From a virus, in the IMG/VR virus record IMGVR_UViG_3300044497_000111, positions 1-58,408 of that record: a stretch of DNA of 58,408 nt, one strand, 5' to 3'. Under the pieces are notes generated by a model. It did not search any database, was not told the DNA's origin, and saw only the letters and a list, made by a program, of their open reading frames with translations. Of this stretch, positions 12,990 to 53,281 are shown one piece after another. A program made the translations under genes and the position numbers. The stretch's first letter is position 1. Each line of letters opens with the position of its first letter.

Positions 12990-13039
12990 GTCGGCGACGA
13001 GTGTGCCGACCTTCCGGCGAGTCGCCTATTTTTCAGTAC

Positions 13040-22030: not shown

Positions 22031-22198
22031 CCCCTTGAAAACACGTCTTTTCTGTCTGGCTAAGTGATAGCAGGGCTGTCACTTCCAGACTATCCCACCG
22101 CGACCGCCGATTTATGACCCAAACCAGACCGCTCTGGTTATACTTGTATTCATTGGTTGGCTGATTCGAGACGAAACGAGACGAGACGAGACGAAGAC

Positions 22199-23365: not shown

Positions 23366-23443
23366 TCGCGGGTCTTGCCTGACGGTCGACCATCGACGGT
23401 CGACCGTGGGGCTGGATTCACGAACACGAAACGAGACGAGACG

Positions 23444-23914: not shown

Positions 23915-24423
23915 AGACCGACGACCTTGGCGTCACGTTGACGCACCATACCGTCCCGACCGGTCACGGCCTGATGGCGGGATTTCTCGTCCGGTTCACC
24001 GGAACGACGACCGACATCGGCTATGTCTGGACGTCGGGGGGATCGTGGCGGTGGCAGACGGTCAAGGCCGAACACTACGGCGAACGGACGACCAAGCGAC
24101 TCGCCACGATGGCCCTTCGCGACTCGTTTGCCGTGATGACCGGTCGACCGTTGACGACCACGACGACACGGACCCCGGTCCTGACCCAACGCGATGCCGA
24201 CATCCTCGACGCGTGGGGCACGTCGCCAGCGCGGTCGGTCGGTCGGTCGTCGACAACATCGACTCCACGACCGGTCGTCGTGCCTGTGACCGCTCAGACG
24301 GTCCCCGAGACCGTCCCGCCGGTCGTTCGTCCGGTCGTTCGACAGATCGTCTGGGACGACACGGCCCCCGCGTTCGACGTCACCGCCGCGCTCGACGCGG
24401 CTTTCCGCAACCGCAACAAGTAA
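23911..24423 (+). CDS. Hypothetical protein
   Basis: 170-aa ORF with an ATGA overlap to the upstream gene. Thr/Pro/Val-rich C-terminal half. Confidence 0.5.
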   Translation: MKTDDLGVTLTHHTVPTGHGLMAGFLVRFTGTTTDIGYVWTSGGSWRWQTVKAEHYGERTTKRLATMALRDSFAVMTGRPLTTTTTRTPVLTQRDADILDAWGTSPARSVGRSSTTSTPRPVVVPVTAQTVPETVPPVVRPVVRQIVWDDTAPAFDVTAALDAAFRNRNK

Positions 24424-26017: not shown

Positions 26018-26385
26018 TGCTCATGCTGATGAAGGGGCGCTACGTCGCGCTCGTCGCAGCCGGAAAAAAGACCACCACTATCCGACCGTGGAAGACGTGC
26101 CGCCTCCGACCGGGCGGCACGTTGAATTTCAACGGGCGCCTGAAGGTCCGTATCACCCACGTCGAACAGAAGACGCTCGATGACCTCACCGAGCGTGATG
26201 CTCGACGCGACGGCTTCGCGTCTCGACAGGCCTTCCTGCGGGCGTTTCGTGCCCACTATCCGACCTCGACGACGACGATGGTCACGATTCTCACGTTTGC
26301 GTCTCCGGTCCCAGTAGTGCGAGCGCCACGTCGCGAGTCGCAGGCGGACCGACGTACTCGAATCCGGCGGTCAGCCGGTTACTAG
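26017..26385 (+). CDS. ASCH (PUA-like) domain protein
   Basis: ...VALVAAGKKTTTIRPW...LRPGGTLNF...VRITHVEQKTLDDLTERDARRDGF... fits the ASCH pattern. Its 3' end converges on and overlaps 26291..27442. Confidence 0.5.
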   Translation: MLMLMKGRYVALVAAGKKTTTIRPWKTCRLRPGGTLNFNGRLKVRITHVEQKTLDDLTERDARRDGFASRQAFLRAFRAHYPTSTTTMVTILTFASPVPVVRAPRRESQADRRTRIRRSAGY

Positions 26386-27442
26386 CCCGTTTCATATTCC
26401 CGACGAAGCCACCCCGCGCCGTGCGGCGATTGGCTCGTTGTCGTGTGCCGAAGCTCGGTTCGCGCCCCATGAGCCAGAGCGGGGACCGCGCACAGTGCGC
26501 GACGACCGCCGGATGCGCGGCCGTGCGGAAGACCGGCTTGCCGTTCCACGCGAGCACACTCGAGACAAAGTCGGCGAGCGCCACGCCGATGCCCACGCCC
26601 TGATAGTCCGGCAGGCACACGAGCCGATGCAGCCGCCAGCCGCTCCGCTGCGGGTGCGGGAACGACAACGCCGCCACGAACGCGACCGGTCGGCCCTGCC
26701 ATGTCGCGACGAAGCACAACGCCGCCTTGTTTAGCTCCGTGTCGAGGTAGTGATGGTGACGGAAGTACACCCACGCCGAAGACTGCACCCGACCCACACT
26801 GAGTTCGATGACGGGGGGGCGTTGAAGCTCCCTCCAGTGAAAGTCGTTCGTGGCAGGGCGATAGACCCAATCGGGCGTCAGCCACGCCTCGACATCTTCG
26901 TGACAGGTCACGGCAATAAATTGCTGCCCACGCTGCCGCACGGTCCTGGCGACGGCGGCACTGCCGACCTGCGCCACCGTCCGGTCGACGACCGATGTGA
27001 ATTCGTCGACGACGGCGAGGGCGTTGTCGGCGTGCTCGGCGAGCACTCGCGCCATCGTCACGCGAAATTGCTCGCCGGTGGAGAGCACCTGAAACGGGCG
27101 CACCCAGCTCGGCGGGTCGGAGAAGCCGACGCTCGACAGCAGATTGACGATGTCCTTGATGCCCATCGTCGACGGAAAGCCGTCGAGCACGCTTCGCGTC
27201 GGCGACCAGGTATACGTCCGCGCCAGTTCGGCGGGCCACAGATGCCGCGCCACGGTGCTTTTGCCCGAGCCGCTGGCGCCGACGATCAAGCCGACGTGCC
27301 ACGGCCGATCATCGAGCGGCAGCGCCACGTCCCACGCGAGCTCGACGCGGGCGCTCGGCGGCACCGAGAACAGGCCTTCCAATTGCTGGACGCGGGCAGA
27401 TCGTTCGACGACCGACGACACTACGACACGAGTGCTTTGCAT
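26291..27442 (-). CDS. ABC-type ATPase domain fused to a GNAT-like (acetyltransferase-fold) domain
   Basis: Walker A GASGSGKST, ABC-signature-like LSTGEQFR and Walker B LAVVDEF. C-terminal ...LHRLVCLPDYQGVGIGVALADFV... (GNAT motif A Q/RxxGxG). Confidence 0.6.
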   Translation of the reverse strand: MQSTRVVVSSVVERSARVQQLEGLFSVPPSARVELAWDVALPLDDRPWHVGLIVGASGSGKSTVARHLWPAELARTYTWSPTRSVLDGFPSTMGIKDIVNLLSSVGFSDPPSWVRPFQVLSTGEQFRVTMARVLAEHADNALAVVDEFTSVVDRTVAQVGSAAVARTVRQRGQQFIAVTCHEDVEAWLTPDWVYRPATNDFHWRELQRPPVIELSVGRVQSSAWVYFRHHHYLDTELNKAALCFVATWQGRPVAFVAALSFPHPQRSGWRLHRLVCLPDYQGVGIGVALADFVSSVLAWNGKPVFRTAAHPAVVAHCARSPLWLMGREPSFGTRQRANRRTARGGFVGNMKRASNRLTAGFEYVGPPATRDVALALLGPETQT

Positions 27443-28071
27443 GCGAGTCCCTCTTGCGCGAAACGGTCGAGCAACGCCACCTGTTCCTGTTCGTCGGTAC
27501 AGGTGATGACGACCAGGAATTGCCCCGGCACCGGCTGGTTGTCCGGCGCGAACGCCACGACTTTCATCTTCCGCAATTCGATGTCGGTGAAAAACGGTTT
27601 CAGGTCGAGCCCGGCGGCATGGTCGGCCGCCAATTGCTCGACGTCCCACTCCGCGAGCTCGCCCGTGCGATTGTCGAAGAGCGCGAGATCGCGCTTCTGT
27701 TCCGGCGTCAGGCCACGCCGCCGCACGGCAATGATCTCGTCGCCTTCGGCCTCGACGACGCGGACCTTCGTGATGCCCACCTGTGAGGCCGCATCGGTCA
27801 CGCCGTTGCCCGCCAGCACGATGTCGTCTTCGTCGATGACGATGGACCGTGCCGCGCCGACGGACTTGAGCGCGTCGACGATCATCGCGACGTTTCGTGG
27901 CGTGCGTTTGCGGCGATTCTGCGGGTCCGGCTTCAGGTCGGCGATGACCATGTCCGGCGCCGAATTGGGCGGCGGGTCGGTCGGGTCGGCCGTCGGGGTC
28001 GGGATGACCGGCGGCAGGTCGGTCGACAGGTCGTCGGCGGTCGTCTCAATCGGTCGTCGTCTCGACGTCAT
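27421..28071 (-). CDS. ParB-like nuclease-domain protein (paralogue 1)
   Basis: AGGAG SD before ATG 28071. ...IADLKPDPQNRRKRTPRNVAMIVDALKSVGAARSIVIDEDDIVLAGNGVTDAA is the ParB/Srx-type N-terminal domain common in phage ParB-methylase proteins. Confidence 0.65.
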   Translation of the reverse strand: MTSRRRPIETTADDLSTDLPPVIPTPTADPTDPPPNSAPDMVIADLKPDPQNRRKRTPRNVAMIVDALKSVGAARSIVIDEDDIVLAGNGVTDAASQVGITKVRVVEAEGDEIIAVRRRGLTPEQKRDLALFDNRTGELAEWDVEQLAADHAAGLDLKPFFTDIELRKMKVVAFAPDNQPVPGQFLVVITCTDEQEQVALLDRFAQEGLACKALVS

Positions 28072-28075
28072 AGCG

Positions 28076-28270
28076 TGACTCCTAGCGGGACCGGTCTCCC
28101 GACCGGTCGGAAGGTCGATTTCAGGTCTCCGAACGCGCCAGCGACCGGCTGGCACGGTCTCCCACGGTCGTCCCGAGACCGGTCTCGACGGGGTCGGTCG
28201 TCGGTCGGTCGGTCGACCGGTCGACGGTCTCCGGTCGGTCGTCGGTCTCGACGTCGAACAACGACCGTTG
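28076..28270. repeat. Repeat region R2 ((GGTC)n, GACCGGTCTCCCGACCGG, palindrome GAGACCGGTCTC at 28175-28186)
   Basis: Read directly. It lies upstream of the ParB-like gene and overlaps the 3' end of the GNAT-like ORF. Confidence 0.8.
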
Positions 28271-28771
28271 CGCGGTCGGCATCGGCCAGACCAACGACGG
28301 GCAGACGACCGCGCCGCGTACGATTTCCCATCGCACCTTGGGACCGGTGTCGTGGCGGTCCGAGCCCGTGCCGCGCAATTCGCTCCACTTGCCGCCCGAC
28401 CATGTCGAGACCGGCGTCCAGCCCGACGCTCGCAACGAGACGCCCGATTCGGCTTCGAGCGTGTACGTGACGAACCGCCGATAGCCGAGCGCCTTGCCCG
28501 CTCGCAGACACGCGGCGTAGAGCATCGAGCAGAGATTCTTTTCGGCGCCGTCGGCCGTACAGACGCGATTGATTTCGAGCGTGTCTCGCGCCATCAGCTC
28601 GCGGGCTTTGCACAGGCCGGCGACGGCGACTCCCTGCACCTGGCCGTCTCGCGTAATCGCCGCGCAGGCAAACTTGCTCGACGGCAGCGCCCCGTTGTGG
28701 CGATGAAAGTGTGCGATGTACATGTTCGCTTCCGCCAAGGTCACCGGCACGATCCGAACATCACAAGGCAT
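28121..28771 (-). CDS. GNAT-fold-like small protein (type often found beside phage Dcm genes)
   Basis: ...AHFHRHNGALPSSKFACAAITRDGQVQGVAVAG...LEINRVCT...NLCSMLYAACLRAGKALGYRRFVTYTL..ESGVSLRASGW. The C-terminal ~45 aa are read through repeat R2, so the end is uncertain. Confidence 0.45.
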   Translation of the reverse strand: MPCDVRIVPVTLAEANMYIAHFHRHNGALPSSKFACAAITRDGQVQGVAVAGLCKARELMARDTLEINRVCTADGAEKNLCSMLYAACLRAGKALGYRRFVTYTLEAESGVSLRASGWTPVSTWSGGKWSELRGTGSDRHDTGPKVRWEIVRGAVVCPSLVWPMPTAQRSLFDVETDDRPETVDRSTDRPTTDPVETGLGTTVGDRASRSLARSET

Positions 28772-28982
28772 CCACGTGCGCCATCCTGGAACCGAGCCAC
28801 GCCATGCACGGCACCGCCATTGAATTGCCGATGGCCTTGTAGCGCGGGCCGTCCTTCGCGAGTCGACCGCGATAGGGCACGAGCGTGTAGTTGCGCGGAA
28901 ATCCCTGTAGAAATTCACACTCGACGGCCGTTAGTCTGCGGACGCGTAGCCCGGTGTTCTGACGATGGTTGGGTCGCCCCAT
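28761..28982 (-). CDS. DNA (cytosine-5) methyltransferase, C-terminal fragment (motifs IX-X)
   Basis: VRRLTAVECEFLQGFPRNYT and KAIGNSMAVPCMAWLG. The first usable ATG (28982) lies inside the HNH gene. The same frame is open up to 29525. Confidence 0.55.
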   Translation of the reverse strand: MGRPNHRQNTGLRVRRLTAVECEFLQGFPRNYTLVPYRGRLAKDGPRYKAIGNSMAVPCMAWLGSRMAHVDAL

Positions 28983-29410
28983 CTTTTCCAACGCTGATAG
29001 TGCCGACTGCAATAGCCGTGTCCCTTCACCGGTTGATCGCACAGTGAACAAGACGGCTTCGGCCGATGCGCCCGGTTGTGACAGCTTCGACAGATACGCT
29101 CCAAGTTCTCTGGCGCGTTGTTCCGATGGTTGCCATCCCTGTGATGCACATCGCTCGCTGATGGCTTCCCGCACCGATTGCATGGCCCCTTCGGCACGAC
29201 TTTGCGCGAGTGCCAATGCGCAGTGGACCAGCCAATCTCGACTCCATGTCGCGAGTCGAAGGCCGCAGCCATGCAGCGCCGATTGCAGAATTTCCTCCGG
29301 CCAAAATGCAACAAGGATTCGAGCGACCCATCCGATAAACGCTGCCTCGCCAATTTGCTCTCGCACTGTGCGCAGTACTTCAACGGGTCCGGTTTCCTCG
29401 GCATTGCCAT
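28931..29410 (-). mobile_element. HNH homing-endonuclease-type ORF inserted inside the C5-methyltransferase gene
   Basis: ...DVHHRDGNHRNNAPENLERICRSCHNRAH... plus CxxC pairs. Third-position GC is clearly higher in this frame than in the overlapping methyltransferase frame. The segment is AT-richer than its flanks. Confidence 0.75.
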
Positions 29411-29531
29411 GTCGACTCGCTCCGTCGTCTAACGTCACATTCGACAGTCGGAAATTATGCGTGCCCTCCCGCGTGTAGGTCCGCGCCTGATTCGCGGCCA
29501 CGGGATCGGCGAGTTCGTCGCACACCGCGAT

Positions 29532-30251
29532 TTAATTCGCGACCTCGTCGCCGGCCGGTCCGCTCGTGCGCTTCGCCCACTTCGCCGACATCGCCTGATT
29601 CACGATCCCGCCGTTGAGTTCGAACTGGGTGCCGAGCCCGCCACCGCTGCGATGGCGTGCCGCAAGCGGGCCGGTAGGGTTTTCTTTCGCCGGTCGGCGC
29701 GGCGCAGGATGCCTTGACAGGCTTTCGCGCTCAAATAGAACCGCTGCGGCACGTCGCCAGTCTCGAGAATGGCCGACAACGAAGACACGCGGCCGACGCT
29801 GGGCCAAGCCGAAGTACTGAGCGTCCAGCACTCGGTAGGCGAACCCATACCCGAGCGCCGCCAGCGCCCCGAGGAAGGCACCAAAATCCCGTCCGTCGCT
29901 CGATGACAGGACTCCGGGCACGTTCTCCCATACCAGCCAACGGGGCCGATAGCGATCAGCAATTGCCAGATACGTGAGTGCGAGATTGCCTCTGGGGTCA
30001 GCCAGACCGGCGCGAAGTCCGGCGACGGAGAAGGACTGACACGGGGTTCCGCCGACGAGAACATCGACGGTTGCATCGGGCCAGTCATGGAAGGCGCTGA
30101 CGTCGCCGCGATTCGGCACCGATGGGTAGTGATGCTGCAGCAACGCCGACGGGAACGGCGCCGTCTCCGCGAACGAACTCGCCGACCAACCCAGTGGGTG
30201 CCACGCCACGGTCGCCGCTTCGATGCCGCTGCAGACGCTCATGTAGATCAT
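29532..30251 (-). CDS. DNA (cytosine-5) methyltransferase, N-terminal fragment (motifs I-VIII)
   Basis: SVCSGIEAATVAW (I), GGTPCQSFS (IV), ENV (VI) and QRRPRVFVVG (VIII). It ends ...SGPAGDEVAN-TAA. Confidence 0.8.
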   Translation of the reverse strand: MIYMSVCSGIEAATVAWHPLGWSASSFAETAPFPSALLQHHYPSVPNRGDVSAFHDWPDATVDVLVGGTPCQSFSVAGLRAGLADPRGNLALTYLAIADRYRPRWLVWENVPGVLSSSDGRDFGAFLGALAALGYGFAYRVLDAQYFGLAQRRPRVFVVGHSRDWRRAAAVLFERESLSRHPAPRRPAKENPTGPLAARHRSGGGLGTQFELNGGIVNQAMSAKWAKRTSGPAGDEVAN

Positions 30252-30703
30252 TCATTCGCGTTGACGACGACGGTGCCCGCCTCTAAGAGCCGTCCCACTT
30301 GGCCGCTCGCGTACGCGGTTTCAATCTGCGGCAGGATCATGTCGGCCACCGTCCGGTCACCCGGCATCACGATGTGCGCCAGAAATTCCTCTTCGAAGGT
30401 GGCGATGTTGTTCTCGACGCATTCCAATTTCGCCTTGATGACCAACAGCAGCGCCCGCCACTTCTGCCGTTCGGCCTGCTCCCACCGCGCCGCGCCGACT
30501 CGCGTGTTCATCTTGTATTTCGCCCGGTCGGGCAGATGGACGATGAAGCGCACGTACCGGTTGTAGGCTTTGAATTGCACCCGAGCGATGCCGTGGTCGT
30601 AGTCGGTGCCGCACATAAATTGCGAGCACTTGTGCTTCGACAACAGGCGCTCGATCTCCGCCCGCGATTGAATGACCGGCACCTTGGTGTTTTCAGCGAA
30701 CAT
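30248..30703 (-). CDS. Hypothetical conserved phage protein
   Basis: 151-aa ORF with an ATGA overlap to the methyltransferase start. Confidence 0.55.
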   Translation of the reverse strand: MFAENTKVPVIQSRAEIERLLSKHKCSQFMCGTDYDHGIARVQFKAYNRYVRFIVHLPDRAKYKMNTRVGAARWEQAERQKWRALLLVIKAKLECVENNIATFEEEFLAHIVMPGDRTVADMILPQIETAYASGQVGRLLEAGTVVVNANE

Positions 30704-31283
30704 GACTCCCCTTCCGTCGCCGTGGACGCCTCACGGTGTCGTCGTGCGGCAGGCGTTCGAAGACCGTGAACCATCGCGCATTGCCGCGACGACCGGTGCC
30801 GACGGCGACGACGGCCACTTCCTTCCCCCAGCTCGGCGGCGAGGGCCACTTGTAATCGAGCACGCCGACGCGACTGCCCTGCCAGACCACGCCGAGCGCG
30901 TGCTTGAGCACGAGGTCGATGGGCGGAAACGCCGCCCGACCGGGCGCGTATTCGTCGGCGTCGTCTTCCGTGTACGGGCGATCAATCAACACGGCATCCC
31001 ACGGCGTGAATTTCATCTCGTTGCGCCACGGCAACGGCACGCGGGCATCGTGCAGAAAATCCGGCTGACAGGCCGGGTCCAGGTCGAGCGTCTTGTCGTT
31101 CTTGCCGAGCCCGGCGTACGGGTACTCGCGAATCTTCCCGGCGCACACATGGAGCACCGCGTCGTCGGCGCAGACGCCGAGCAGCGCCCGAGCGCGATGA
31201 AGAAACCCGGCGGGGTACGCGCCGTGGTACTTCACCTTCGACCGCGCCAATATCCAGACGTCCGTTATGGGCCGATAATTCAT
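30693..31283 (-). CDS. Putative SAM-dependent DNA methyltransferase-like protein (DRPY in place of DPPY)
   Basis: ...VLHVCAG... (motif I-like), ...DLDP..., ...AVLIDRPYTEDD (motif IV-like). Only the last 196 codons of track ORF 30693..31844 look coding. Confidence 0.4.
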   Translation of the reverse strand: MNYRPITDVWILARSKVKYHGAYPAGFLHRARALLGVCADDAVLHVCAGKIREYPYAGLGKNDKTLDLDPACQPDFLHDARVPLPWRNEMKFTPWDAVLIDRPYTEDDADEYAPGRAAFPPIDLVLKHALGVVWQGSRVGVLDYKWPSPPSWGKEVAVVAVGTGRRGNARWFTVFERLPHDDTVRRPRRRKGSHVR

Positions 31284-37898: not shown

Positions 37899-38323
37899 GC
37901 AAATTCGCCTTCAGTTAGGGACGGGAGCTCCGGCGCAAGACCGAATTTGTCCTTACACCACCGATGCAAACGCAAGACCTCTTGGACGTCGTTGGCGATA
38001 CCAGCCCACTCGCGCAAGATCAACGTCTCGGCTTGGTCGTAGGTGAACAAGTCCAATTGCTTCCATTCGCCTGCGTCTTCGTCGGCACTGAGCGGCTTCG
38101 CGAACGGCAGTCGGTCTTCCGTTTTTCCCTTCAAGGCCTGTCGACATAATTCCGTCAGCCCTCGGCGTTGACATACAGCAAGCACGTCGTCCGGTATGAC
38201 GCCACGAGCGACCGCTTCATCGGCGAGAACACGCGGCGGCATCGAGCCGCCCAATTGCTGAAATAAATCACGCAGACGCTTCATCACGGCCGTTCGTTGC
38301 AGGGGAATTAGTTCGTCTTGCAT
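37895..38323 (-). CDS. Hypothetical protein
   Basis: AGGAGG SD before ATG 38323. 142 aa. Confidence 0.5.
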   Translation of the reverse strand: MQDELIPLQRTAVMKRLRDLFQQLGGSMPPRVLADEAVARGVIPDDVLAVCQRRGLTELCRQALKGKTEDRLPFAKPLSADEDAGEWKQLDLFTYDQAETLILREWAGIANDVQEVLRLHRWCKDKFGLAPELPSLTEGEFA

Positions 38324-39275
38324 GCGCGTTCGCCTCCTGAAAGTCGGTGTAGACGCGAGTCGTGGTGGCCGAAAGGTTTTCAATTAGTGGCTTGAACGCC
38401 GCCGTACGGCACGCTTTGACAGCGCGACGAAGCGCATTTTCTGCATCGCCCAACAACGTCAGTCCGGGGTCGACGGGGGCTGGCACGGCGGCGGCACGAG
38501 TGAGCGCGGTTCGGCGGGTCACATCATCATCAGACTTGGCCTGCTCGAACAACGAACGACGTTCGTCGGTATTCATGTTGATCACGTTTTTCAGCATGCC
38601 GATGGCCGTCTTCGGCGGGATGGCGTCTTGATCTAAAAGGGCGGCAACCTGCGACCGGTCGCGTGATGGAAGTTTTTCCAATTCAACGCCAGCCTCGAGA
38701 ACACTGTGCTGCACCCAGCCGGTACGCTGCATAAACGGGAACTGCTCGGCGAGCGCGACGTGCCGCTCGACGCGCACTTGCTCGGCAGGCGAGATGCCAG
38801 TTTGCTCGGCTACGTCACGCTTCGATCCAGCTTTCGTGCCTTTCGGACGTCCCTCTCGTCGCCCTCGTTTTGAGTTTTCGTTTCGGGTTGAAACAGAAAC
38901 GGCGTCCTCTTTTGCCTTCGCTTTCAGGTCCGCCTCGGCTTGTCGAATCTGCGCAAGTCGCTGTTTACTTGCGGCGAAGTCGGAGAGCGCCTCTCGGATG
39001 GTGTTCTCTTCGAGCTCGATGGCGCGGAGTTCGTCATCGGTCAATCGCTCGACCTGTCGCGCCGGAATCGTTTTCCAATTGAGCGCCCTGCACGCCTCTA
39101 AGCGGCGATGTCCGGCAACGAGCACATCGCCGCGCAGCAGAATGGGATGAATCAGCCCGTGGTCACTGATGCTTTTTTTGAGACTCTGTAGTCGCCCGAG
39201 CGATTGACGACGACGCTCGCCGACGACGACGCGTTGAATGGGCACCTGCGTAACGGCGGCTGTGGATACGCTCAC
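38268..39275 (-). CDS. ParB-like nuclease-domain protein (paralogue 2) with HTH-like centre
   Basis: ...LKKSISDHGLIHPILLRGDVLVAGHRRLEACRALNWKTIPARQV... (ParBc, GHRR). Later ...RDVAEQTGISPAEQVRVE.... GTG 39275 forms a GTGA overlap with the upstream stop. Confidence 0.7.
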   Translation of the reverse strand: MSVSTAAVTQVPIQRVVVGERRRQSLGRLQSLKKSISDHGLIHPILLRGDVLVAGHRRLEACRALNWKTIPARQVERLTDDELRAIELEENTIREALSDFAASKQRLAQIRQAEADLKAKAKEDAVSVSTRNENSKRGRREGRPKGTKAGSKRDVAEQTGISPAEQVRVERHVALAEQFPFMQRTGWVQHSVLEAGVELEKLPSRDRSQVAALLDQDAIPPKTAIGMLKNVINMNTDERRSLFEQAKSDDDVTRRTALTRAAAVPAPVDPGLTLLGDAENALRRAVKACRTAAFKPLIENLSATTTRVYTDFQEANAHARRTNSPATNGRDEASA

Positions 39276-41747: not shown

Positions 41748-41764
41748 AGTTAATTTGCAGGAAC

Positions 41765-41792
41765 ATAACATAAAAAGTTTGACTCGTGACAA
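41765..41792 (-). promoter_or_regulatory. Possible sigma70-type promoter for the Cro-like gene (TTGTCA-16-TGTTAT)
   Basis: Read on the minus strand within the AT-richest stretch of the window. The -35 box abuts the -35 of the divergent promoter. Confidence 0.3.
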
Positions 41793-41808
41793 TCTTTTTG
41801 GGTAGGCT
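41779..41808 (+). promoter_or_regulatory. Possible sigma70-type promoter for the CI-like gene (TTGACT-18-TAGGCT)
   Basis: TTGACT at 41779-84 and TAGGCT at 41803-08. ATG 41819 lies only ~11 nt after the -10, implying a leaderless or near-leaderless mRNA. Confidence 0.4.
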
Positions 41809-41818
41809 GTAATTGGGC

Positions 41819-42205
41819 ATGGAATTAGGTAACGCGATACAACAAGACACAACGAGCGACAACGAAAGCGCATATGCTGCGTTGGTGTTCCAACGTGCCG
41901 CAGCTCGAGTGCGGATGTGGCGCACGTCGCATCGGATGGGGCAAGTCGAATTTGCCCGCTTGGCTGGCGTATCGGTCGGGTGTTTACAGGCGTTCGAAGG
42001 CGGCGTGCGCGACACTCGCGAGTCCAACGTGGCGAAGATTGCCGCCGCGATGGGCCAGTCGTTTGCCGAACTCACGAAAGAAGACGATCCCTACCCCGGT
42101 GCCGATCCCCTCTTGAATCTCCGCCCGGAAGACCTGCGCATCGCGCATGCCTTTCATCACGCGGGCGCCGACGTGAAGCACGCGGCGAAACGCCTCTTCC
42201 TTTAG
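41819..42205 (+). CDS. XRE-family HTH regulator (CI-like repressor candidate, no S24 peptidase domain)
   Basis: ...RTSHRMGQVEFARLAGVSVGCLQAFEGGVRD... HTH_3 motif. Divergent from the Cro-like gene and co-oriented with int. Confidence 0.7.
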   Translation: MELGNAIQQDTTSDNESAYAALVFQRAAARVRMWRTSHRMGQVEFARLAGVSVGCLQAFEGGVRDTRESNVAKIAAAMGQSFAELTKEDDPYPGADPLLNLRPEDLRIAHAFHHAGADVKHAAKRLFL

Positions 42206-42971: not shown

Positions 42972-44300
42972 ATGCCATCGAAAATCAAACGCACGAAAGT
43001 CGAACCGAATATCTGGCGCCGCCCGAGCGGTGTCTACGAAGCCCGGCTGACGGTCACCGGCCGCCCGCCGGTGTTGGAGACGTTTCCACCGGACACGTCG
43101 ATCAAGGAGATTCGCCAGTGGATCGCCGACAAACGCAGCGAACTCGAAAAGGATTGCCGTCTCTTCGGTCGACTCACGCGACAGGCGCAGGCACAGGCGA
43201 CCGGCACGCTCGAAGGCGATGCCTCGCGGTATCTCAATCAAATTGCTGGCCGTGAAGGGTCGAAGGCGGACGGGTCGCATCTGCGGGCATGGTTCGACGT
43301 CGAGGTCGTCGTCGACCACGTCCGCGTCCGACTCGGGGGACTGGCGCGTGCCGACTGGACCGCCGAACACGTGAACCTGGCGATTGCCGCATGGCAGAAA
43401 AAACCGTCCCCACATGCCATTCGGAAAGTCGTCGTGCGGGCGTCTCAACGGGACGCCCACACCATCGGCACGCATCGCATCGCGGCGACGACCGTGAAGG
43501 CGCACGACCGGACCGGTCATGCCTGCGCCACGGTACGCGGCTACGAACGCCAAGGGTCGGTCATCACCGAACACGCACGGGCGGCGCACACGATTCGTCG
43601 CTACGAACGAACAGCCCCGGCGACGAGCGGCCACATCGTCGCCACGAAAACGATTCGCCATCGGTGTCGGGTGCTCGCGCATCTGTTCCACACGCTCGAC
43701 GGCCCGAAGGCGCCAACGCCGGTCGACGACGCCCGTGTGCCGAAGCATTCGCAGACGCCGCCGGTCACGGTGTCGGCCGAGGTCATCGCGAAGACGCTGG
43801 AAAAGCTGGTCGCGCTCGACGAGAAAATGTTTGCGCGGTTTTACCTGCACGCCGTCACCGCGCAGCGACCCTGTCAGATCGAACGGGCACAACCCGGCGA
43901 TGTGCTGCTCGGCGACGAGCGGTCGTGGCTCGTACGCAACGCGAAGGGCGAACCCGCGCACACCTTTGCCTTGAACGATCATCACGTCCGCGCATGGGAG
44001 TACTTCATCAAGGTGGACGCGTGGGGTACCTTCGACCGGTCCGAATACGGCAAGGTTATTCACAAAGCGGGATGGCCGAAAGGCGTCCGCCCCTACAGTG
44101 CGCGACATTCGCTGGCGGTCGACGCGATTCGGCGTGGCGTCAGTCTCGGCGATGTACAGGCGATGCTCGGCCACACGCAGATCCAGACGACGCGGACGTT
44201 CTATGCGCCCTTCCAAGTCGACCGGCAGCGCGTGGTCAGCGAACAGATGGCGCCGTATCTGGCCGACGTGTTGAAGCCACGACTCGTGGGGAAGAAATGA
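42972..44300 (+). CDS. int: Tyrosine integrase with N-terminal arm-binding-type domain
   Basis: N-terminus ...NIWRRPSGVYEARLTVTGRP.... Catalytic region ...RPCQIERA..., ...YSARHSLAV..., ...MLGHTQIQTTRTFY (R..H.R..Y). Confidence 0.85.
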   Translation: MPSKIKRTKVEPNIWRRPSGVYEARLTVTGRPPVLETFPPDTSIKEIRQWIADKRSELEKDCRLFGRLTRQAQAQATGTLEGDASRYLNQIAGREGSKADGSHLRAWFDVEVVVDHVRVRLGGLARADWTAEHVNLAIAAWQKKPSPHAIRKVVVRASQRDAHTIGTHRIAATTVKAHDRTGHACATVRGYERQGSVITEHARAAHTIRRYERTAPATSGHIVATKTIRHRCRVLAHLFHTLDGPKAPTPVDDARVPKHSQTPPVTVSAEVIAKTLEKLVALDEKMFARFYLHAVTAQRPCQIERAQPGDVLLGDERSWLVRNAKGEPAHTFALNDHHVRAWEYFIKVDAWGTFDRSEYGKVIHKAGWPKGVRPYSARHSLAVDAIRRGVSLGDVQAMLGHTQIQTTRTFYAPFQVDRQRVVSEQMAPYLADVLKPRLVGKK

Positions 44301-49135: not shown

Positions 49136-49332
49136 CACGTCCGCGAGCCACGCCCCCGGTGCGCGATGCCGACGTCATCGCGCTCTATCGCACGTGGACG
49201 ACGGACCAATTACTTCGACTGCGCCGTGCCTTTGCGGCCGACCAACGGCAGCGCGGCGTCACGCTGGCAACTATCGCGTTCTGCGAGGGGCGTCTCGCCA
49301 TCATCGACGCCATCCTGACGGAGAGACGATGA
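49132..49332 (+). CDS. Hypothetical protein
   Basis: GTG 49132 forms a GTGA overlap. 66 aa. Confidence 0.4.
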   Translation: MTRPRATPPVRDADVIALYRTWTTDQLLRLRRAFAADQRQRGVTLATIAFCEGRLAIIDAILTERR

Positions 49333-49622
49333 ACAAACAGATCGCCTCGCACGCGATGTTCGCCGCCGCCGTCATGGTCAACATTGTCGGCGGCGTGGTC
49401 GGCATGGTGGACGGCGATTGGCAGGCGGCGAGCTGGCGGGCCTGCTCGCTGGCCTTTGTTCTCGGCCTGTGGATCGGCACCGAGTATCTCCGCCGGATGA
49501 TGGTGGCGCGGGCGGAGTTCTATCGGACGCAGGTCACGCTGTTGGAACGGATGATCGACGGCAGGATCGCCGCCGCCGCCGTGGAACTCGGCGACGAACT
49601 CGGCGACTCCACAAGACACTGA
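49329..49622 (+). CDS. Small membrane protein (2 TM segments)
   Basis: MNKQIASHAMFAAAVMVNIVGGVVGMV...CSLAFVLGLWIGTEYL. Confidence 0.45.
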   Translation: MNKQIASHAMFAAAVMVNIVGGVVGMVDGDWQAASWRACSLAFVLGLWIGTEYLRRMMVARAEFYRTQVTLLERMIDGRIAAAAVELGDELGDSTRH

Positions 49623-49699
49623 TGCAAATTATTTTGATGCCGAAAACCCGGCGCCCTGGCCGCACCATGTCGGCGAATTCGACGGCTCAGTGCCGGGCG

Positions 49700-49875
49700 C
49701 CGAGACCACGAACGAACCGACGACCGACCGACGACACGACCGACCGATAGACCAGACCTACGACCGCCGACCGGTCTCCCGTGACCGGTCGACGCGTCGA
49801 GACCGACCGACCGCCTATAGAGATGACCGGGGACCGACCGTCTCCCCACGGTCTCGACGACCGGTCAGCCGACCT
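49700..49875. repeat. Intergenic repeat region R3 ((CGAC/CCGA)n, GACCGGTCTCCCGTGACCGG, CCTATAGAGATGACCGG, GTCTCCCCACGGTCTCGACGACCGGTC)
   Basis: Read directly. No credible ORF. It precedes the promoter at 49911. Confidence 0.8.
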
Positions 49876-49910
49876 GAAAACCCACGAAATCCTTGAAGGT
49901 TTTACCTAGC

Positions 49911-49940
49911 TTGACACCGTGTCAAGTGTCGCCTTACACT
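49911..49940 (+). promoter_or_regulatory. Strong sigma70-type promoter candidate (TTGACA-18-TACACT) with a palindrome over the -35 box
   Basis: TTGACA at 49911-16 and TACACT at 49935-40. TTGACA-ccg-TGTCAA inverted repeat at 49911-25. About 50 nt upstream of ATG 49992. Confidence 0.55.
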
Positions 49941-49991: not shown

Positions 49992-50234
49992 ATGAACACG
50001 AACGAAACGAGACAGAGACAGCGCGAAGACGGCACGTCGACCTTCACGACCGTGGATTGGGATGCCAAATATTACTGGCCCGTCGGCGCCCGCGTCATCT
50101 ATCGCGGCTTCGTCGGCACGGTCGTCAAGGAAAACCCGACGACCGTCTCCGTCATGTTCGACGACCACAACCCCGGCCACGTTTACGACCGCGTCCCGAT
50201 GTCGGCGCTCTATCGCGTGGACGGGGGCCGTTAA
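49992..50234 (+). CDS. Hypothetical protein
   Basis: AAAGGAAC before ATG 49992. 80 aa. Confidence 0.5.
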   Translation: MNTNETRQRQREDGTSTFTTVDWDAKYYWPVGARVIYRGFVGTVVKENPTTVSVMFDDHNPGHVYDRVPMSALYRVDGGR

Positions 50235-50326
50235 TGACGTCCCCGATTGAATTGATCGCCCGTATCTACGAACGCGAAAACGCGCACAAGTCGGTCTCGA
50301 CGACGACCACGAAAGGCGGCAAGTAA
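50234..50326 (+). CDS. Hypothetical micro-protein (30 aa)
   Basis: TAATG junctions at both ends. MTSPIELIARIYERENAHK... Confidence 0.3.
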   Translation: MTSPIELIARIYERENAHKSVSTTTTKGGK

Positions 50327-50559
50327 TGACACTCACAACCGTCGACTGCATTCTCATCTTGGTCGACGACGAAGGCCGCGACGTGTTCGCGCCCGCCGTT
50401 GTCGTCGACGACGAACCCGACTTCGACGACGGCGACCCCCGCGTCGACGACGACGACGATCCCGATCCCCTCTTCGAAGACTATCCCGGCCAGTACATCG
50501 GCCGGGATGTTCTCGTCGCCGACGACGTCGCGTTCCTTCGGACAGGAGACTGGCGATGA
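50326..50559 (+). CDS. Hypothetical highly acidic protein
   Basis: 77 aa. DDEPDFDDGDPRVDDDDDPDPLFEDY. Confidence 0.45.
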   Translation: MTLTTVDCILILVDDEGRDVFAPAVVVDDEPDFDDGDPRVDDDDDPDPLFEDYPGQYIGRDVLVADDVAFLRTGDWR

Positions 50560-50780
50560 CCACGACGATCACGACTCACGACCACGTCGACGACGTCGCC
50601 TGCCCGGACTGCGGGGGCGCCATCGACATTCAATGCGACGTGATGACCGAGGACGTCTACGTGACTCCGTTCGTCGTCGCCAACGACGACGGCACGTTCC
50701 CCTTCACGACACGACCGCGTCAGACCTTCGCGGTCGCGTTCTGTTCCGCCTGTGAATGGGCGCACGAGATTCGCCGATGA
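50556..50780 (+). CDS. Hypothetical Zn-ribbon-like protein
   Basis: CPDCGG...CSAC. ATGA junctions. Confidence 0.45.
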   Translation: MTTTITTHDHVDDVACPDCGGAIDIQCDVMTEDVYVTPFVVANDDGTFPFTTRPRQTFAVAFCSACEWAHEIRR

Positions 50781-51112
50781 CTATCACAAACACGACCCAC
50801 TTCCCCGCGAACATCGACGCCCGCGAGTCTCGCGGCCTTTCTCGCCGAACTGCGACGGTGGGGCTTCGCCTACGCCGTCGCGCAGACGACCGACTTTACC
50901 GACGTGACCTTCTGGAAGGAGACGACACGATGACGACCACGAACCACACCGAACAGCAATTGAAGATCGACCTGCAGCCGTCCGAGGGACGGTGCCGGTA
51001 CTGCGGCGAACGGCGACCGGCCGGGTACTCGGTGACCTGCGGTCGGTCCGTCTGCCAAGAGGCCCACTATCACGACAAGGAAATCCGCACGCCGAAACGG
51101 GGGCGCCGATGA
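50777..51112 (+). CDS. Hypothetical protein(s); the apparent frame switch near 50825 is unresolved
   Basis: The single track frame reads MTITNTTHFPANIDARE.... From ~50825 to 50933 the +1 frame has the better codon bias (ASLAAFLAELRRWGFAYAVAQTTDFTDVTFWKETTR*). ATG 50930 (GGAAGGAGAC SD) starts a Zn-ribbon-like 60-aa product. Confidence 0.35.
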   Translation: MTITNTTHFPANIDARESRGLSRRTATVGLRLRRRADDRLYRRDLLEGDDTMTTTNHTEQQLKIDLQPSEGRCRYCGERRPAGYSVTCGRSVCQEAHYHDKEIRTPKRGRR

Positions 51113-51147
51113 CCAGACGAAACGACATCACGAAAGGGAGACGACCG

Positions 51148-51417
51148 ATGACGACTATGCGCGACATCGTGCTCGCGGCGCGATTTATCGCCGACGTGCG
51201 AACGATTCTGAAAGACGAACAGGGCGAGTGGCGGGAATTGAACAGTTGCGCCGATGCGATTCAGGACATTTCGTTGGCGTTGACGCAGTACGACATCGAG
51301 ACGGCGGTCGTTGCCGTTCGTGCCGTTCGTTCGGAATGCACGGACAGTCCCGCGTGCGCTCGCACCGGCTGCGCCGACTGTGAACGGTCGTACGGGCCGC
51401 AAAGGGGGCGACGATGA
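51148..51417 (+). CDS. Hypothetical protein
   Basis: AAGGGAGAC SD before ATG 51148. 89 aa. Confidence 0.45.
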   Translation: MTTMRDIVLAARFIADVRTILKDEQGEWRELNSCADAIQDISLALTQYDIETAVVAVRAVRSECTDSPACARTGCADCERSYGPQRGRR

Positions 51418-51773
51418 CGCCGAAGAAACCGACCGCGAAGGTCGACGTGCCGAAAGGTCAGTCGACCGCATGGCAGGCGACGGCGCACGCCCGAGCCAAA
51501 CAGATCACCGCCGAGCTGAACGTCGAACATCCGGGCGCGTACCTTCGCGCCAAGATTCTGACCCCGCGTGGACTGACCGTGAAGGCCGCCGCCGTCGAGC
51601 TCGGCGTGTCGCGGCAGTCGTGGTCGAGCGTCATCACCGGCGTGACGAACCTGTCACCCGAAATGGCGTGGCGGATTGAGAAGACATGGGGCGTCTCGAT
51701 GGAGTCGCTCCTGAAACGGCAAATGGCGTACGACATTGCGCGAGTTCGCGCAGAACAGGCAGAGACGAAATGA
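51414..51773 (+). CDS. HigA/VapI-type HTH (antitoxin-like) protein
   Basis: HPGAYLRAKILTPRGLTVKAAAVELGVSRQSWSSVITGVTNLSPEMAWRIEKTWGVSMESLLKRQMAYD matches the HigA antidote pattern. Confidence 0.6.
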   Translation: MTPKKPTAKVDVPKGQSTAWQATAHARAKQITAELNVEHPGAYLRAKILTPRGLTVKAAAVELGVSRQSWSSVITGVTNLSPEMAWRIEKTWGVSMESLLKRQMAYDIARVRAEQAETK

Positions 51774-51874
51774 GCATGCCACTGGATCTCTCACGCCCTC
51801 GATGGGAAGGATTGTAATTCGTCGGTTCAATAATCGCAGCGAAGATTGACTGCAGTTAAACTTGGAGAGACGAT

Positions 51875-52144
51875 ATGAGCGTGGAACTTTACGAACACTT
51901 GAAGACGGCGGGCATGCCCTCAGAACCGGCGCACGCGTTGGCGATGCTGCTGGTCACGAAGGCCGACATCGTCCCGCTGACGACGAAGGCAGACTTGCAC
52001 GAGCTGCGGGCGGGGACCAAGACGGACCTGCACGAACTCCGGGCGGAAATGCACCGCGAGTTCGCCGCCCAGACACGGGCGATGATCACCCTGATGATCG
52101 CGCTCACCGCCATCTACGCCGGAATCGTGGCGCTCCTGCGATGA
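51875..52144 (+). CDS. DUF1640-like coiled-coil protein with C-terminal TM anchor
   Basis: GGAGAGAC SD. ...LVTKADIVPLTTKADLHELRAGTKTDLHELRAEM...MITLMIALTAIYAGIVALL. Confidence 0.45.
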   Translation: MSVELYEHLKTAGMPSEPAHALAMLLVTKADIVPLTTKADLHELRAGTKTDLHELRAEMHREFAAQTRAMITLMIALTAIYAGIVALLR

Positions 52145-52269
52145 CCGACAAGATCGAGCACGACCTCGTCGTCCTGAAGTGGATGCTCGGCGTCGTGTTG
52201 GCCTTGTCGGTCGGCCTGTTCTGGCTGCAATTCGCCATCATGGTGCGCGTGTTGGCCCGACTGCCGTAG
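52141..52269 (+). CDS. Small TM protein (42 aa; DUF1640 C-terminal-like)
   Basis: ATGA overlap. MTDKIEHDLVVLKWMLGVVLALSVGLFWLQFAIMV... Confidence 0.4.
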   Translation: MTDKIEHDLVVLKWMLGVVLALSVGLFWLQFAIMVRVLARLP

Positions 52270-52273: not shown

Positions 52274-52304
52274 ACGGGGGGGCCGTTCTGGTCCCCCCTA
52301 TTTT
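52274..52304 (+). terminator. Intrinsic terminator candidate ending the plus-strand arm
   Basis: GGGGGGCC-gttct-GGtCCCCCC stem followed by TATTTT, starting 5 nt after the stop at 52269. Confidence 0.55.
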
Positions 52305-52319
52305 CCCCCTTCGCCTGAC

Positions 52320-52640
52320 CCCTTCGCGAGACGACCGCGCCGACCGGTCTGGCTGACCGGCTGGCGGTCGACCCGTCGACCGGTCGACCTGTCGAGACCG
52401 GTCTCCCGACCGACCGTCCCACGGTCTTCCCGCGACCGTCGGACCGACCGGTCACGAAAACGACCTGCCGACCGGTCTAGCTGACCGCCTGCCACGTCTG
52501 GGACCGGTCGGTCGACCGTCGAGACCGGTCGGGTGGGTCGTCGGTCTGGCGACCTGCTGGCCCGGTCGGTCGCGAGACCCGGTCCCGAGACGGTCCCGAC
52601 CGGTCGTCGTCGACGTGTCAGGCGAGACCTGACACGACCG
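52320..52640. repeat. Repeat region R4 (largest member of the GACCGGTC / GTCTCCCGACCG family)
   Basis: Tandem GTCGACC x3 (52365-52390). Palindrome GAGACCGGTCTC (52394-52405). GTCCCACGGTC. A 40-nt block at 52459-52498 shared with 16531-16570. A 9-bp hairpin at 52614-52636. Confidence 0.85.
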
Positions 52641-52643
52641 GTC

Positions 52644-52926
52644 GGGGTGCCAAATGGGGTGCCAAATCGAAAAGACAATCAGACGAAATCAAAGGCAATC
52701 GGAGACAACAAAACGCGGACCGGATTTGGCACCCCGCGAGCGGTCGACGACCGCGCCGACAGGGGGCACGTGGCAGATTGCCTAATGTTTTTGCTGATTT
52801 CGCGCTTGTGGAAGGTGGTTGCGGGGGGGGGATTTGAACCCCCGACCTTTGGGTTATGAGCCCACAGGTAAGAGCTCAATCGCTTAAATCCTTAGCAAAA
52901 ACGCACAGCGCGTTGGGGTGCCAAAT
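52644..52926. repeat. GGGGTGCCAAAT repeats (candidate integrase arm-type sites) flanking the tRNA fragment
   Basis: Direct copies at 52644-55, 52656-67 and 52915-26. Inverted copy at 52724-35. Confidence 0.75.
52816..52866 (-). tRNA. 3' half of an initiator-type tRNA-Met(CAT)-like gene (partial; candidate attP core)
   Basis: Minus strand reads TGTGGGCTCATAACCCAAAGGTCGGGGGTTCAAATCCCCCCCCCGCAACCA. This gives an anticodon arm with three G:C pairs and a CAT anticodon, a T arm, the acceptor 3' strand CCCCGCA-A-CCA (as in E. coli tRNA-fMet), and an encoded CCA. No matching 5' acceptor strand or D arm lies upstream. Confidence 0.7.
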
Positions 52927-53281
52927 GTTTTTCCTTGTCACCCTGTCCCGAGCCCGTTGTTGGGGTATGGAAGGGATTCGAACCCTTGCGGCGGGACGTC
53001 CGCGTCCGTTGCCCGCCGACCAGCGCGGCACTGGTTGCCTTCAGCCTCTCAGCCACCATCACCCCGACGCGCCAGTGTATCTCCGTCGGGTCAGGTGCCG
53101 CCAGTCCCCACCGACCGGGCAGACACGAGTAGCCGCACACGCCGTCGGGCGGACAGGCGGGGTCTTGCAAGATTTCAATCGGCAAGCCGTCGGCGCACTT
53201 CGGGAAGGCTCGCAAATTCCACGGGCGCGGGACGCAGCCGCTCGCCACCAGCACCATGACGACGACGGCCAGCCTACGCAT
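52892..53281 (-). CDS. Putative lipoprotein (last ORF of the tail operon); 3' half overlaps a tRNA-like sequence
   Basis: MRRLAVVVMVLVASGC... has a signal peptide plus lipobox-type Cys16, followed by a Cys-rich ~50 aa. The ATG overlaps the stop of the large tail protein (ATGCGTAG). The C-terminal ~60 aa look non-protein-like. Confidence 0.45.
   Translation of the reverse strand: MRRLAVVVMVLVASGCVPRPWNLRAFPKCADGLPIEILQDPACPPDGVCGYSCLPGRWGLAAPDPTEIHWRVGVMVAERLKATSAALVGGQRTRTSRRKGSNPFHTPTTGSGQGDKEKHLAPQRAVRFC
52961..53065 (-). pseudogene. tRNA-like sequence with type-II (long variable arm) architecture, probably degenerate
   Basis: Minus strand: GGGGT(G)ATGG-TG-GCTGAGAGGCTGAAGGC (D arm), ACCAG-TGCCGCG-CTGGT (non-canonical loop, no U33), a ~31-nt extra arm, AAGGGTTCGAATCCCTT (T arm), then CCATACCCC-A. 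The acceptor pairs only with one bulged G. No CCA is encoded. Confidence 0.45.

Follow-up and report, generated by a model that had tools for sequence, protein, structure and literature searches.

The unit of repetitive extragenic palindromic (REP) sequences and of bacterial interspersed mosaic elements (BIMEs) is an imperfect palindrome of 20-40 bp that can form a stem-loop. REP elements are clustered, extragenic and often arranged as inverted dimers; two REP superfamilies carry GTAG or CGTC tags, and untagged REP-like families also exist (PMC3733652). Both REP clusters in bacteria and dispersed intergenic repeat families in phages are known already. The DNA described here is the IMG/VR virus record IMGVR_UViG_3300044497_000111, which over its full length of 58,408 bp is referred to as the window. 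It contains five to six non-coding tracts that lie at the borders between gene modules and are built from GACCGGTC, an 8-bp palindrome with the half-site GACC. The tracts resemble REP/BIME clusters in that short GC-rich palindromic units are extragenic, clustered in both orientations and often located between convergent genes. They differ in residing in a phage genome and in being composed of units that start with GG-GACCGGTC and lack a GTAG or CGTC tag. What is new is a REP-like, apparently host-type unit that fills the module borders of a phage, which is a variant of what is known and not a new category.

The tracts and their motif

Six repeat regions had been recognised in the initial annotation of the window. 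Their extent, location and ratio of GACC to GGTC are as follows.

R1, 16440-16660, between the HNH stop at 16721 and the terS start at 16364; GACC:GGTC 18:3 (+ strand)
R2, 21840-22030, divergent late/early gap from 21757 (- strand) to about 22199 (+ strand); mostly (GTC)n
R3, 23381-23415, marginal 35-bp patch (GACGGTCGACCATCGACGGTCGACCGTGGGG) ahead of the start codon at 23444
R4, 28076-28300, immediately upstream of the start of a ParB-like gene at 28071, ending 5 bp short of it; GACC:GGTC 7:18
R5, 49690-49880, past gene 49329-49622 and ahead of the promoter at 49911; GACC:GGTC 18:4
R6, 52320-52645, the largest tract, in a convergent gap past the + strand terminator; GACC:GGTC 23:18, nine copies of GACCGGTC

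The repeat family is real; R3 is no longer than 35 bp, and in R2, which consists mostly of (GTC)n, only the right end contains GACC units, GACCGGTCTCC and GACCGACC. A seventh tract-like stretch, at about 24130-24345, lies within a called open reading frame (ORF) of 170 amino acids and contains (GGTC)4 and copies of GACCGGTC at 24138 and 24269, with a further copy upstream in the same ORF at 23958. A Mom-like ORF extends with its 3' end across the right half of R4 (28121 to about 28300), where it encodes a low-complexity tail of D, R, P and T residues. Five tracts are intergenic; this tail in R4 and the stretch at 24130-24345 are the exceptions.

GACCGGTC occurs 28 times in the window, compared with 3.0 +/- 1.7 times in dinucleotide shuffles of the whole window (shuffle maximum 9). 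Nineteen of the 28 copies fall within the 1,635 bp of the tracts (2.8% of the genome), which amounts to a 69-fold enrichment. When each tract was shuffled separately, such that local composition was retained, 0.5 copies of GACCGGTC were obtained against 19 observed (z 27.6), 23.4 copies of GACCG|CGGTC against 94, and 2.6 copies of TCTCC against 11. The motif family had been put forward subject to precisely this comparison, and it withstands it, since the counts of GACCGGTC, GACCG and TCTCC all exceed those of local-composition shuffles. The combined density of GACC and GGTC is 1.65 per 100 bp genome-wide and 14-15 per 100 bp in 16401-16617, 27918-28318, 49670-49904 and 52279-52667; a weaker (GTC)n-rich region is located at 21.8-22.0 kb and the 35-bp patch at 23.4 kb.

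The motif positions first given were correct to within a few bases. GTCTCCCGACCG is found at 16483, 28094 and 52401, GACCGTGGG at 16522 and 23402, and CCCACGGTC at 28161, 49845 and 52418 as well as in coding DNA at 35660. GACCGGTCTCC, said to occur five times, occurs four times (22000, 28089, 49769 and 52396). A perfect 12-bp palindrome was recovered at both of its predicted sites.

28175-28186, in R4: perfect 12-bp palindrome GAGACCGGTCTC
52394-52405, in R6: perfect 12-bp palindrome GAGACCGGTCTC

The exact 8-mer GACCGGTC is conserved and its flanks are variable. Every arrangement of the GACC half-site (head-to-head, tail-to-tail, direct) is enriched or common, the head-to-head palindrome GACCGGTC most of all. 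Tandem Repeats Finder (TRF) returned many short arrays of low copy identity with periods of 4, 7, 8, 11, 12, 13, 16 and 22, and no convincing helical period was found in the window's own tracts.

Internal architecture

A degenerate element of about 190 bp is shared by three tracts and a shorter block by two others; within the inverted copy of the element lies the canonical repeat unit.

16438-16626, + strand: ~190-bp degenerate element, copy 1, in R1
28076-28260, - strand (inverted): ~190-bp degenerate element, copy 2, in R4
52360-52557, + strand: ~190-bp degenerate element, copy 3, in R6
21970-22017, + strand: block common to R2 and R5, R2 copy (CCGCTATATAGATGACCGGTCTCCGACCGTC)
49795-49842, + strand: block common to R2 and R5, R5 copy
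28087-28108, + strand: canonical unit GGGACCGGTCTCCCGACCGGTC, a pair of 8-bp palindromes spaced 12 bp apart and joined by the linker TCCC

Co-linear local alignment against an order-3 Markov null gave z 6.4 for R1 with R6 and z 4.9 for R1 with the reverse complement of R4, whereas the opposite orientations remained at the null level. The element is also backed by alignment A1 and by nhmmer. Three co-linear copies beyond the Markov null indicate that the family spread within the genome and did not originate six times separately. The orientation of the element, + in R1 and R6 and - in R4, explains the GACC/GGTC polarity of the tracts. In addition, nhmmer revealed a partial inverted copy at 52437-52578 (- strand) that overlaps copy 3, such that R6 is a head-to-head composite, and it is this inverted copy that accounts for the strong self-complementarity of R6. 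A profile of the element, run over the entire set of fetched DNA, gave good scores solely for the copies in the window itself. The block common to R2 and R5 matches at 73% over 48 nt (z 3.3) and has the form CCGC(C)TATAnAGATGACCGG...GACCGTC.

A recurrent sub-unit, [..GGTC]-TCC(C)-[GACC.. or ..ACGGTC], takes in GTCTCCCGACCG and TCTCCCACGGTC, two motifs of the initial annotation. Across five tracts the linker TCTCC is present 11 times on the + strand and 0 times as its complement; one extra copy is a genuine Shine-Dalgarno sequence. Its orientation is independent of the local GACC/GGTC polarity and of the direction of the flanking genes: TCTCC keeps to the + strand beside - strand genes (R1, R4) and beside + strand genes (R5). 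The likeness to the Shine-Dalgarno context of the phage, to which attention had been drawn, is partly true: GGAGAC precedes 8 and GAGAC 18 of the 98 predicted starts. In the canonical 22-nt unit at 28087-28108 the two GACCGGTC arms can pair. In variant units, such as CACGGTC-TCC-CACGGTC (28153) and GTGGTC-TCCC-GTGGTC (21911), the arms are direct repeats and not complements, which favours duplex-DNA sites, or duplication of the unit, over selection for hairpins.

Three features on the + strand border R5 and R6.

49878-49900, + strand: 23-mer AAAACCCACGAAATCCTTGAAGG, between R5 and the promoter
49911-49940, + strand: sigma-70-like promoter (TTGACA, 18 nt, TACACT), downstream of R5
52276-52298, + strand: intrinsic-terminator-like hairpin with a T-rich tail (TATTTTCCCC), which ends the + operon just before R6

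With R5 upstream of the promoter and R6 after the terminator, the two tracts flank a promoter-to-terminator cassette from outside. RNA folding relative to shuffles gave z -6.1 for R6, -2.4 for R4, -1.8 for R5 and 0.0 for R1. The suggestion that the tracts are structured RNA leaders is not sustained, since folding is not common to the tracts, R5 and R6 lie outside the mapped signals, and Rfam covariance models run on the whole window returned no family at the gathering threshold. Because folding is not shared and the tracts lie outside the mapped signals, any function they have would be placed on double-stranded DNA. Rho-utilisation sites were rejected, as the C/G skew at R1 favours the wrong strand, the sense RNA there being G-rich, and is weak elsewhere. 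Operators or stoperators of a CI- or Cro-like repressor had also been suggested. No GACC-family motif is present in the AT-rich CI/Cro divergent region (41750-41840); the absence of the motif from the immunity region means that the tracts are not repressor stoperators.

Related phages and mosaic junctions

About 115 related loci were assembled from viral and metagenome collections by means of TerL, the P-loop/GNAT protein and the 481-amino-acid late, 338-amino-acid and 1,200-amino-acid tail proteins. GACC tracts were absent from these loci except in the lineage of L043 and L332. The closest relative, a 60-kb contig with a TerL of 86% identity, matches the window colinearly between terS and the tail gene, and its homology ends where the window has R1 and R6. 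Upstream of terS it carries two perfect (TACCCC)n arrays of about 10 units (L001 1-66 and 615-670). These arrays flank a small divergent region and are accompanied by a (GA)n run, and the contig ends within one of them. By its integrase the closest relative has the 3' part of a tRNA gene (L047 14540-14600), which is likely the attP core; this fragment is located where the window has R6 and a small-gene cassette. Another relative (L042) has a CCCC/CTCGAG tract upstream of the HNH gene, and the cos regions of the relatives contain no such repeats. Many of the relatives' contigs begin or end 40-320 bp upstream of terS, for which reason a cos site is expected at R1.

The L043/L332 lineage shares the early genes with the window (55-79% amino acid identity) and has a different packaging module (TerL 30%). 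A single CGGTCG-rich tract lies exactly at the junction between the early genes and the terS module, a position that corresponds in the window to R1, the module from HNH to 21757, and R2. Its GGTC sites, directly upstream of terS, are 10, 10, 11 and 10 bp apart. The 23-mer AAAACCCACGAAATCCTTGAAGG is conserved, reversed, beside the tract in both L043 and L332. These two relatives are 94.6% identical overall and 98% identical across a 100-nt segment that contains the phased sites. Purifying selection on the tract was considered and rejected because tract identities of 89-99% against the average of 94.6% are uninformative. The ParB-like ortholog of L043 (62% amino acid identity) has no tract upstream. 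The tracts thus coincide with mosaic junctions, of which few are independent.

Among closer relatives sought in metagenomes through the P-loop/GNAT protein, none exceeded 79% amino acid identity and none except L043 had tracts. An entropy scan of 70 relative loci revealed mostly coding GC-rich repeats; the low-entropy region of L068 proved to be a coding pentapeptide-like repeat, and L070 has an unrelated 27-bp tandem repeat. The exact 17-mer GACCGGTCTCCCGACCG matched viral contigs five times, in each case as a chance single site in an unrelated contig.

Occurrence of the unit in bacterial genomes

Genomes, one per species, were scanned for three copies of GACCGGTC separated by gaps of <=30 nt. 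Planctomycetota account for 13 of the 120 matches listed, and most matches are single loci in very G+C-rich Actinomycetota. Of the listed Planctomycetota matches, at least six contigs belong to one Planctomycetales metagenome-assembled genome (MAG) and two to another; one Phycisphaerae MAG contributes two loci, a second a single locus, and MAGs of Isosphaeraceae and Planctomycetaceae one locus apiece. Eleven of the 13 listed loci carry the unit GG-GACCGGTCTC-(T/CC/CA/CT)-GACCGGTC, with palindromes 11-12 bp apart; all 18 Planctomycetota units read in this way and are clustered in both orientations. Positions 28087-28108 of the window fit the unit as GGGACCGGTCTC-YN-GACCGGTC and are identical to 22 nt of a Phycisphaerae MAG locus (L141), and the 22-nt unit is present in two Planctomycetota classes. 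Among the matches listed, the linkers TCT/AGA, TCCC/GGGA and TGGA were seen only in Planctomycetota and not in Actinomycetota. The Planctomycetota clusters are intergenic, and five of the nine for which both flanks are defined lie between convergent genes. In the fetched stretches, chromosomal loci with the unit contained no match to any window protein, and no description of the GACCGGTC unit in Planctomycetota or phages was found in the literature. A 254-kb metagenome contig with a TerL relative had no units in the 21.7 kb that were fetched.

In the Planctomycetales MAG CAZXUI01 (L140 311-400, L143 3450-3500, L103 2330-2360) the GACCGGTC units form part of composite intergenic mosaics, which also hold the heptamer microsatellites (GGGATTR)n and (CACCTGT)n and a conserved palindrome of about 30 nt, GGCATGGGCAAGCGCAGCTTGCCCGTG. 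Tandem repeats of 21 bp (two helical turns) that contain ACCGGTC were seen in contigs of Isosphaeraceae, Verrucomicrobiaceae and Gemmatimonadota MAGs (L148 1-215, L094 830-1090, L136 340-400). Many triple-GACCGGTC matches in viral contigs were set aside as collagen-like coding repeats (L207, L191, L262). Two unrelated G+C-rich mobile elements carry non-coding look-alikes: about 20 copies of CCGACCGGTCGG in a divergent gap (L212 8170-8715), and arrays of CGCGACCGGTCGCG beside a similar membrane-protein gene (L235 340-618). Judged by eye from ORF translations, the genes that flank the L212 array encode a DUF2637-like membrane protein and an excisionase-like helix-turn-helix protein, and the neighbour of the L235 array is likewise DUF2637-like. 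On the evidence of these two, arrays of palindromes with an ACCGGT core are a recurrent solution in G+C-rich mobile DNA.

Possible function of the tracts

Read from sequence, the tracts may tentatively be regarded as REP/BIME-like clusters, i.e. duplex-DNA platforms for a probably host-encoded binder, which would mark or insulate the borders of modules and would have spread by duplication and slippage. In this proposal the repeat unit is GACCGGTC, often present as a pair one turn of the helix apart with the asymmetric linker TCTCC(C) in between, and each tract would provide a multi-site double-stranded platform for a dimeric, sequence-specific protein with the putative target GACCGGTCTCCCGACCGGTC. 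That protein is more likely to be encoded by the host than by the phage because the unit is scattered through Planctomycetota chromosomes. The borders marked or insulated in this manner would be cos/terS, the divergence of late and early genes, the modification genes, and both flanks of the promoter-terminator cassette. BIMEs of E. coli do something similar in recruiting IHF and gyrase. The tracts would have originated from the ~190-bp element, copied to three sites, after which units of 4-12 bp would have grown locally by slippage. A possible by-product is the presence of short homologies exactly where relatives swapped modules. Of the ideas in the initial annotation, the general one, protein-binding sites in DNA arrayed along operon boundaries, is still the most economical, but no support emerged for any of its three specific roles.

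A number of observations weigh against this reading. All arrangements of the GACC half-site are common, which is more typical of simple-sequence DNA than of a defined site, and the window's own tracts lack clear helical phasing. The strict two-palindrome unit occurs once in the window, at 28087-28108, together with about ten degenerate versions. The closest relatives do without tracts, and any function must therefore be dispensable or replaceable. Part of the resemblance to Planctomycetota is built in, as the scan pattern forces three copies of GACCGGTC. Searched with the chosen peptide patterns, the genome collection yielded no TerL relative; the best TerL match in a cultured phage is 37%, and the tetranucleotide signature does not discriminate for a host.

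Somewhat unlikely, but a serious rival, is the view that the tracts have no function and consist of neutral or selfish simple-sequence DNA: a microsatellite-like GACC seed would have recombined between gaps and expanded by slippage, and would persist because a cos-packaged genome tolerates about 2% of extra DNA. The many short TRF arrays with variable periods and low identity fit this view, as do the enrichment of every half-site arrangement, the inconsistent phasing and the tolerance of tract-like DNA within two ORFs. The same is true of the relatives, in that the closest one lacks GACC tracts but has perfect (TACCCC)n upstream of terS, L042 has its CCCC/CTCGAG tract, and the cos regions of relatives are free of such repeats. 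In the Planctomycetales MAG loci, heptamer microsatellites lie beside the units. However, simple sequence does not predict one unit in five or six separate gaps, three of them with a co-linear ~190-bp element, nor an exact 8-mer present 19 times against 0.5 expected locally, an 11:0 strand bias of TCTCC, or a 22-nt unit kept in two Planctomycetota classes. Pure slippage accounts for the degeneracy, the variable periods and the different microsatellites of the relatives; it does not account for one unit in six gaps, the three copies of the element, the exactness of the 8-mer or the 11:0 bias.

Unlikely, though likewise a serious rival, is a role as operator- or centromere-like arrays for a protein encoded by the phage itself, whether a ParB-like/KorB-like regulator, terS at R1 or another small regulator, that would coordinate the promoters at the borders. 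Such a protein is suggested by the contact between R4 and the ParB-like gene, by a second ParB_N protein (38268-39245), by the location of R2 and R5, with their common 48-nt block, upstream of early-type promoters, and by the helically phased array directly upstream of terS in L043/L332. The CCGACCGGTCGG and CGCGACCGGTCGCG arrays of L212 and L235, the former in a divergent regulatory gap, are likewise consistent with it, and GACCGGTC-type palindromes appear in the matching text of a paper on TetR-family specificity (PMC7022988). Several findings speak against it. The immunity region lacks the motif, and the helix-turn-helix protein of the R5-R6 cassette is HigA-antitoxin-like. Binding of terS would cover R1 only. 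As regards parS sites for the ParB-like proteins, as initially suggested, R4 does abut the 216-amino-acid gene, but the L043 ortholog is tract-less and no helix-turn-helix was detected in the 216-amino-acid protein, for which Pfam and PDB sequence searches were empty. The unit moreover occurs in bacterial chromosomes at loci whose fetched stretches match no window protein.

A more specific variant of the preferred reading, namely that the phage adopted the host chromosomal REP-like unit GGGACCGGTCTC-YN-GACCGGTC as border elements that recruit a conserved host DNA-binding or topology factor and double as short homologies for the exchange of entire modules (structural, late-accessory, moron cassette) among phages, is doubtful to a greater degree. 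Structures in RNA or single strands (terminators, hairpins that protect mRNA ends as in the classical REP role, structured leaders) are very improbable: R6 folds far beyond shuffles and R4 modestly so, R6 lies between convergent operons like five of nine Planctomycetota clusters, and two GACCGGTC 3-4 nt apart can make an 8-bp hairpin, but z is 0.0 for R1 and -1.8 for R5, R5 is upstream of a promoter and R6 downstream of a terminator, the arms of variant units are direct and not complementary, Rfam gave no match, and the C/G skew is unfit for Rho-utilisation sites on the sense strand.

Significance

Should a host factor turn out to bind the tracts, this would be a rare instance in which chromosomal punctuation of the REP/BIME type operates inside a phage genome, and the 22-nt unit could serve as bait to gain a handle on an uncharacterised DNA-binding activity of Planctomycetota. 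If they act as recombination linkers, they would provide a concrete sequence basis for modular exchange and mosaicism in an uncultured group of phages. The unit might also be used as a sequence-based host marker for a lineage without a cultured relative (best TerL 37%). If the tracts are mere slippage-prone filler, the finding is ordinary, yet annotators are warned that ORFs run through stop-free tracts.

The phage genome

The window has a G+C content of 64%, is circularly assembled and reads as a complete temperate siphovirus-type genome. Genes were called with a home-made codon-usage caller, which yielded 98 predictions consistent with the calls on two Logan contigs (run SRR35361592) that jointly tile the circle. 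Family scans covered about 60 of the 98 predicted proteins. The landmarks are as follows.

Capsid-protease, portal and tape-measure genes, - strand
13512-15302, - strand: TerL
15882-16364, - strand: terS, start at 16364
16721-17407, - strand: HNH, stop at 16721
26291-27442, - strand: fusion of a P-loop ATPase and a GNAT acetyltransferase (phrog_11143, function unknown)
27421-28071, - strand: ParB-like protein, 216 amino acids (PHROG families; only the ParB N-terminal domain detected)
28121-28918, - strand: Mom-like protein
Two DNA methyltransferase genes, - strand
38268-39245, - strand: second ParB_N protein, 325 amino acids (Pfam ParB_N)
Near 41.8 kb: CI/Cro-type divergent region
42972-44300: tyrosine integrase, the sole integrase found
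49992-52269: small-gene cassette, including a HigA-like helix-turn-helix protein

No tRNA gene was found in the window, and at the DNA level the INPHARED/cultured-phage collection contained no near-identical or useful match; among cultured phages the top TerL identity is 37%. The attP placed beside one of the tracts in the initial annotation is putative, the sole integrase found being that at 42972-44300.

The region 26291-31250, beside R4, is a DNA-modification cluster that comprises the Mom-like gene, the ParB-like gene overlapping the P-loop/GNAT gene, and methyltransferases. A C5 cytosine methyltransferase is apparently split over two ORFs, with a further methyltransferase alongside. The pair of ParB-like and P-loop/GNAT genes is kept in 45 metagenome loci. 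In the cassette between R5 and R6, which extends from promoter to terminator, the HigA-antitoxin-like helix-turn-helix protein (51414-51773) follows an ORF of 89 amino acids (region 51148-51773), and the two are a probable toxin-antitoxin pair.

Outside the tracts, some restriction-type palindromes are strongly avoided throughout the genome (CCCGGG 0 against 26.5 expected, GGATCC 0 against 7.2, GCCGGC 13 against 58, CTAG 9 against 31). ACCGGT is mildly under-represented there (0.60), and CCGG and GGTCTC are at expectation. A restriction-site logic for the tracts was rejected, as the avoidance pattern is unconnected to them.

Other repeats were encountered. An A-rich tandem repeat (CGAAGCAAAAG, period 11, two arrays) at 13026-13200, in the gap upstream of the capsid-protease gene, does not belong to the GACC family. 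At 16888-17012, (CCGGTG)n / GTGCCGGT with about 19 units is coding low-complexity sequence in the 5' part of the HNH ORF. The 18-mer ACGAAACGAGACGAGACG is found in identical form at 22171-22188 and 23426-23443, directly before the early-gene starts at about 22199 and 23444, where it provides a common leader or ribosome-binding context that recalls start-associated sequences. Just past R6, at 52644-52735, GGGGTGCCAAAT occurs twice in tandem, and an inverted copy, ATTTGGCACCCC, follows about 70 bp on, after an A-rich spacer with CAATC repeats; candidate roles for this region are origin, attachment site and terminator. Both Logan contigs of this genome end about 100 bp apart near 52865-52961.

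Comparison with known systems

Arrays of terS sites at cosB or pac resemble R1 and the L043 tract, both directly upstream of terS and the latter with sites 10-11 bp apart. They differ in that five other tracts are far from terS (at 21.9, 28.1, 49.8 and 52.5 kb, among others) and in that the cos regions of relatives are without repeats.

In Cluster A mycobacteriophages a stoperator is one discrete, well-defined site, 13-14 bp long, whose sequence matches the operator of the repressor at the early lytic promoter. Like the tracts, stoperators are short sites dispersed over small intergenic gaps of a temperate phage and have a strong orientation bias. In the window, by contrast, the arrays are dense and degenerate, the motif is absent from the immunity region, and TCTCC is always on the + strand and not oriented with the flanking transcription. 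The O_B operators of KorB in RK2 and the four scattered centromere sites of N15 are single palindromes of 13-16 bp. The likeness consists in palindromic sites scattered near promoters over a mobile genome that encodes ParB-family proteins; the difference lies in the arrays of an 8-mer, in an adjacent ParB-like protein with no detected helix-turn-helix, and in a tract that is not kept beside the L043 ortholog.

In conjugative plasmids of Streptomyces, the clt loci consist of 8-bp direct repeats that are read by the FtsK-like TraB (PMC4447253). As non-coding GC-rich arrays of an 8-mer on a mobile element they are comparable to the tracts, and the look-alikes of L212 and L235 are possibly clt-like transfer loci. 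The 8-mer of the tracts differs in being a palindrome, which cannot give polarity alone, and only its TCTCC linker is polar. Among the window proteins scanned there is no FtsK/TraB-like translocase, the sole P-loop protein beside a tract being the P-loop/GNAT fusion.

From REP/BIME clusters the window copies further differ in being far more degenerate, in being interleaved with (GACC)n and in having variant arms that are direct and not inverted. No transposase of the REP-associated tyrosine transposase (RAYT) type or any other was present among the scanned proteins. The resemblance extends to a putatively high copy number per genome with species-specific variants, as the unit displays in the Planctomycetota MAGs, one of which was matched on at least six contigs, to the intergenic location of five tracts, and to R6, a head-to-head composite between convergent operons.

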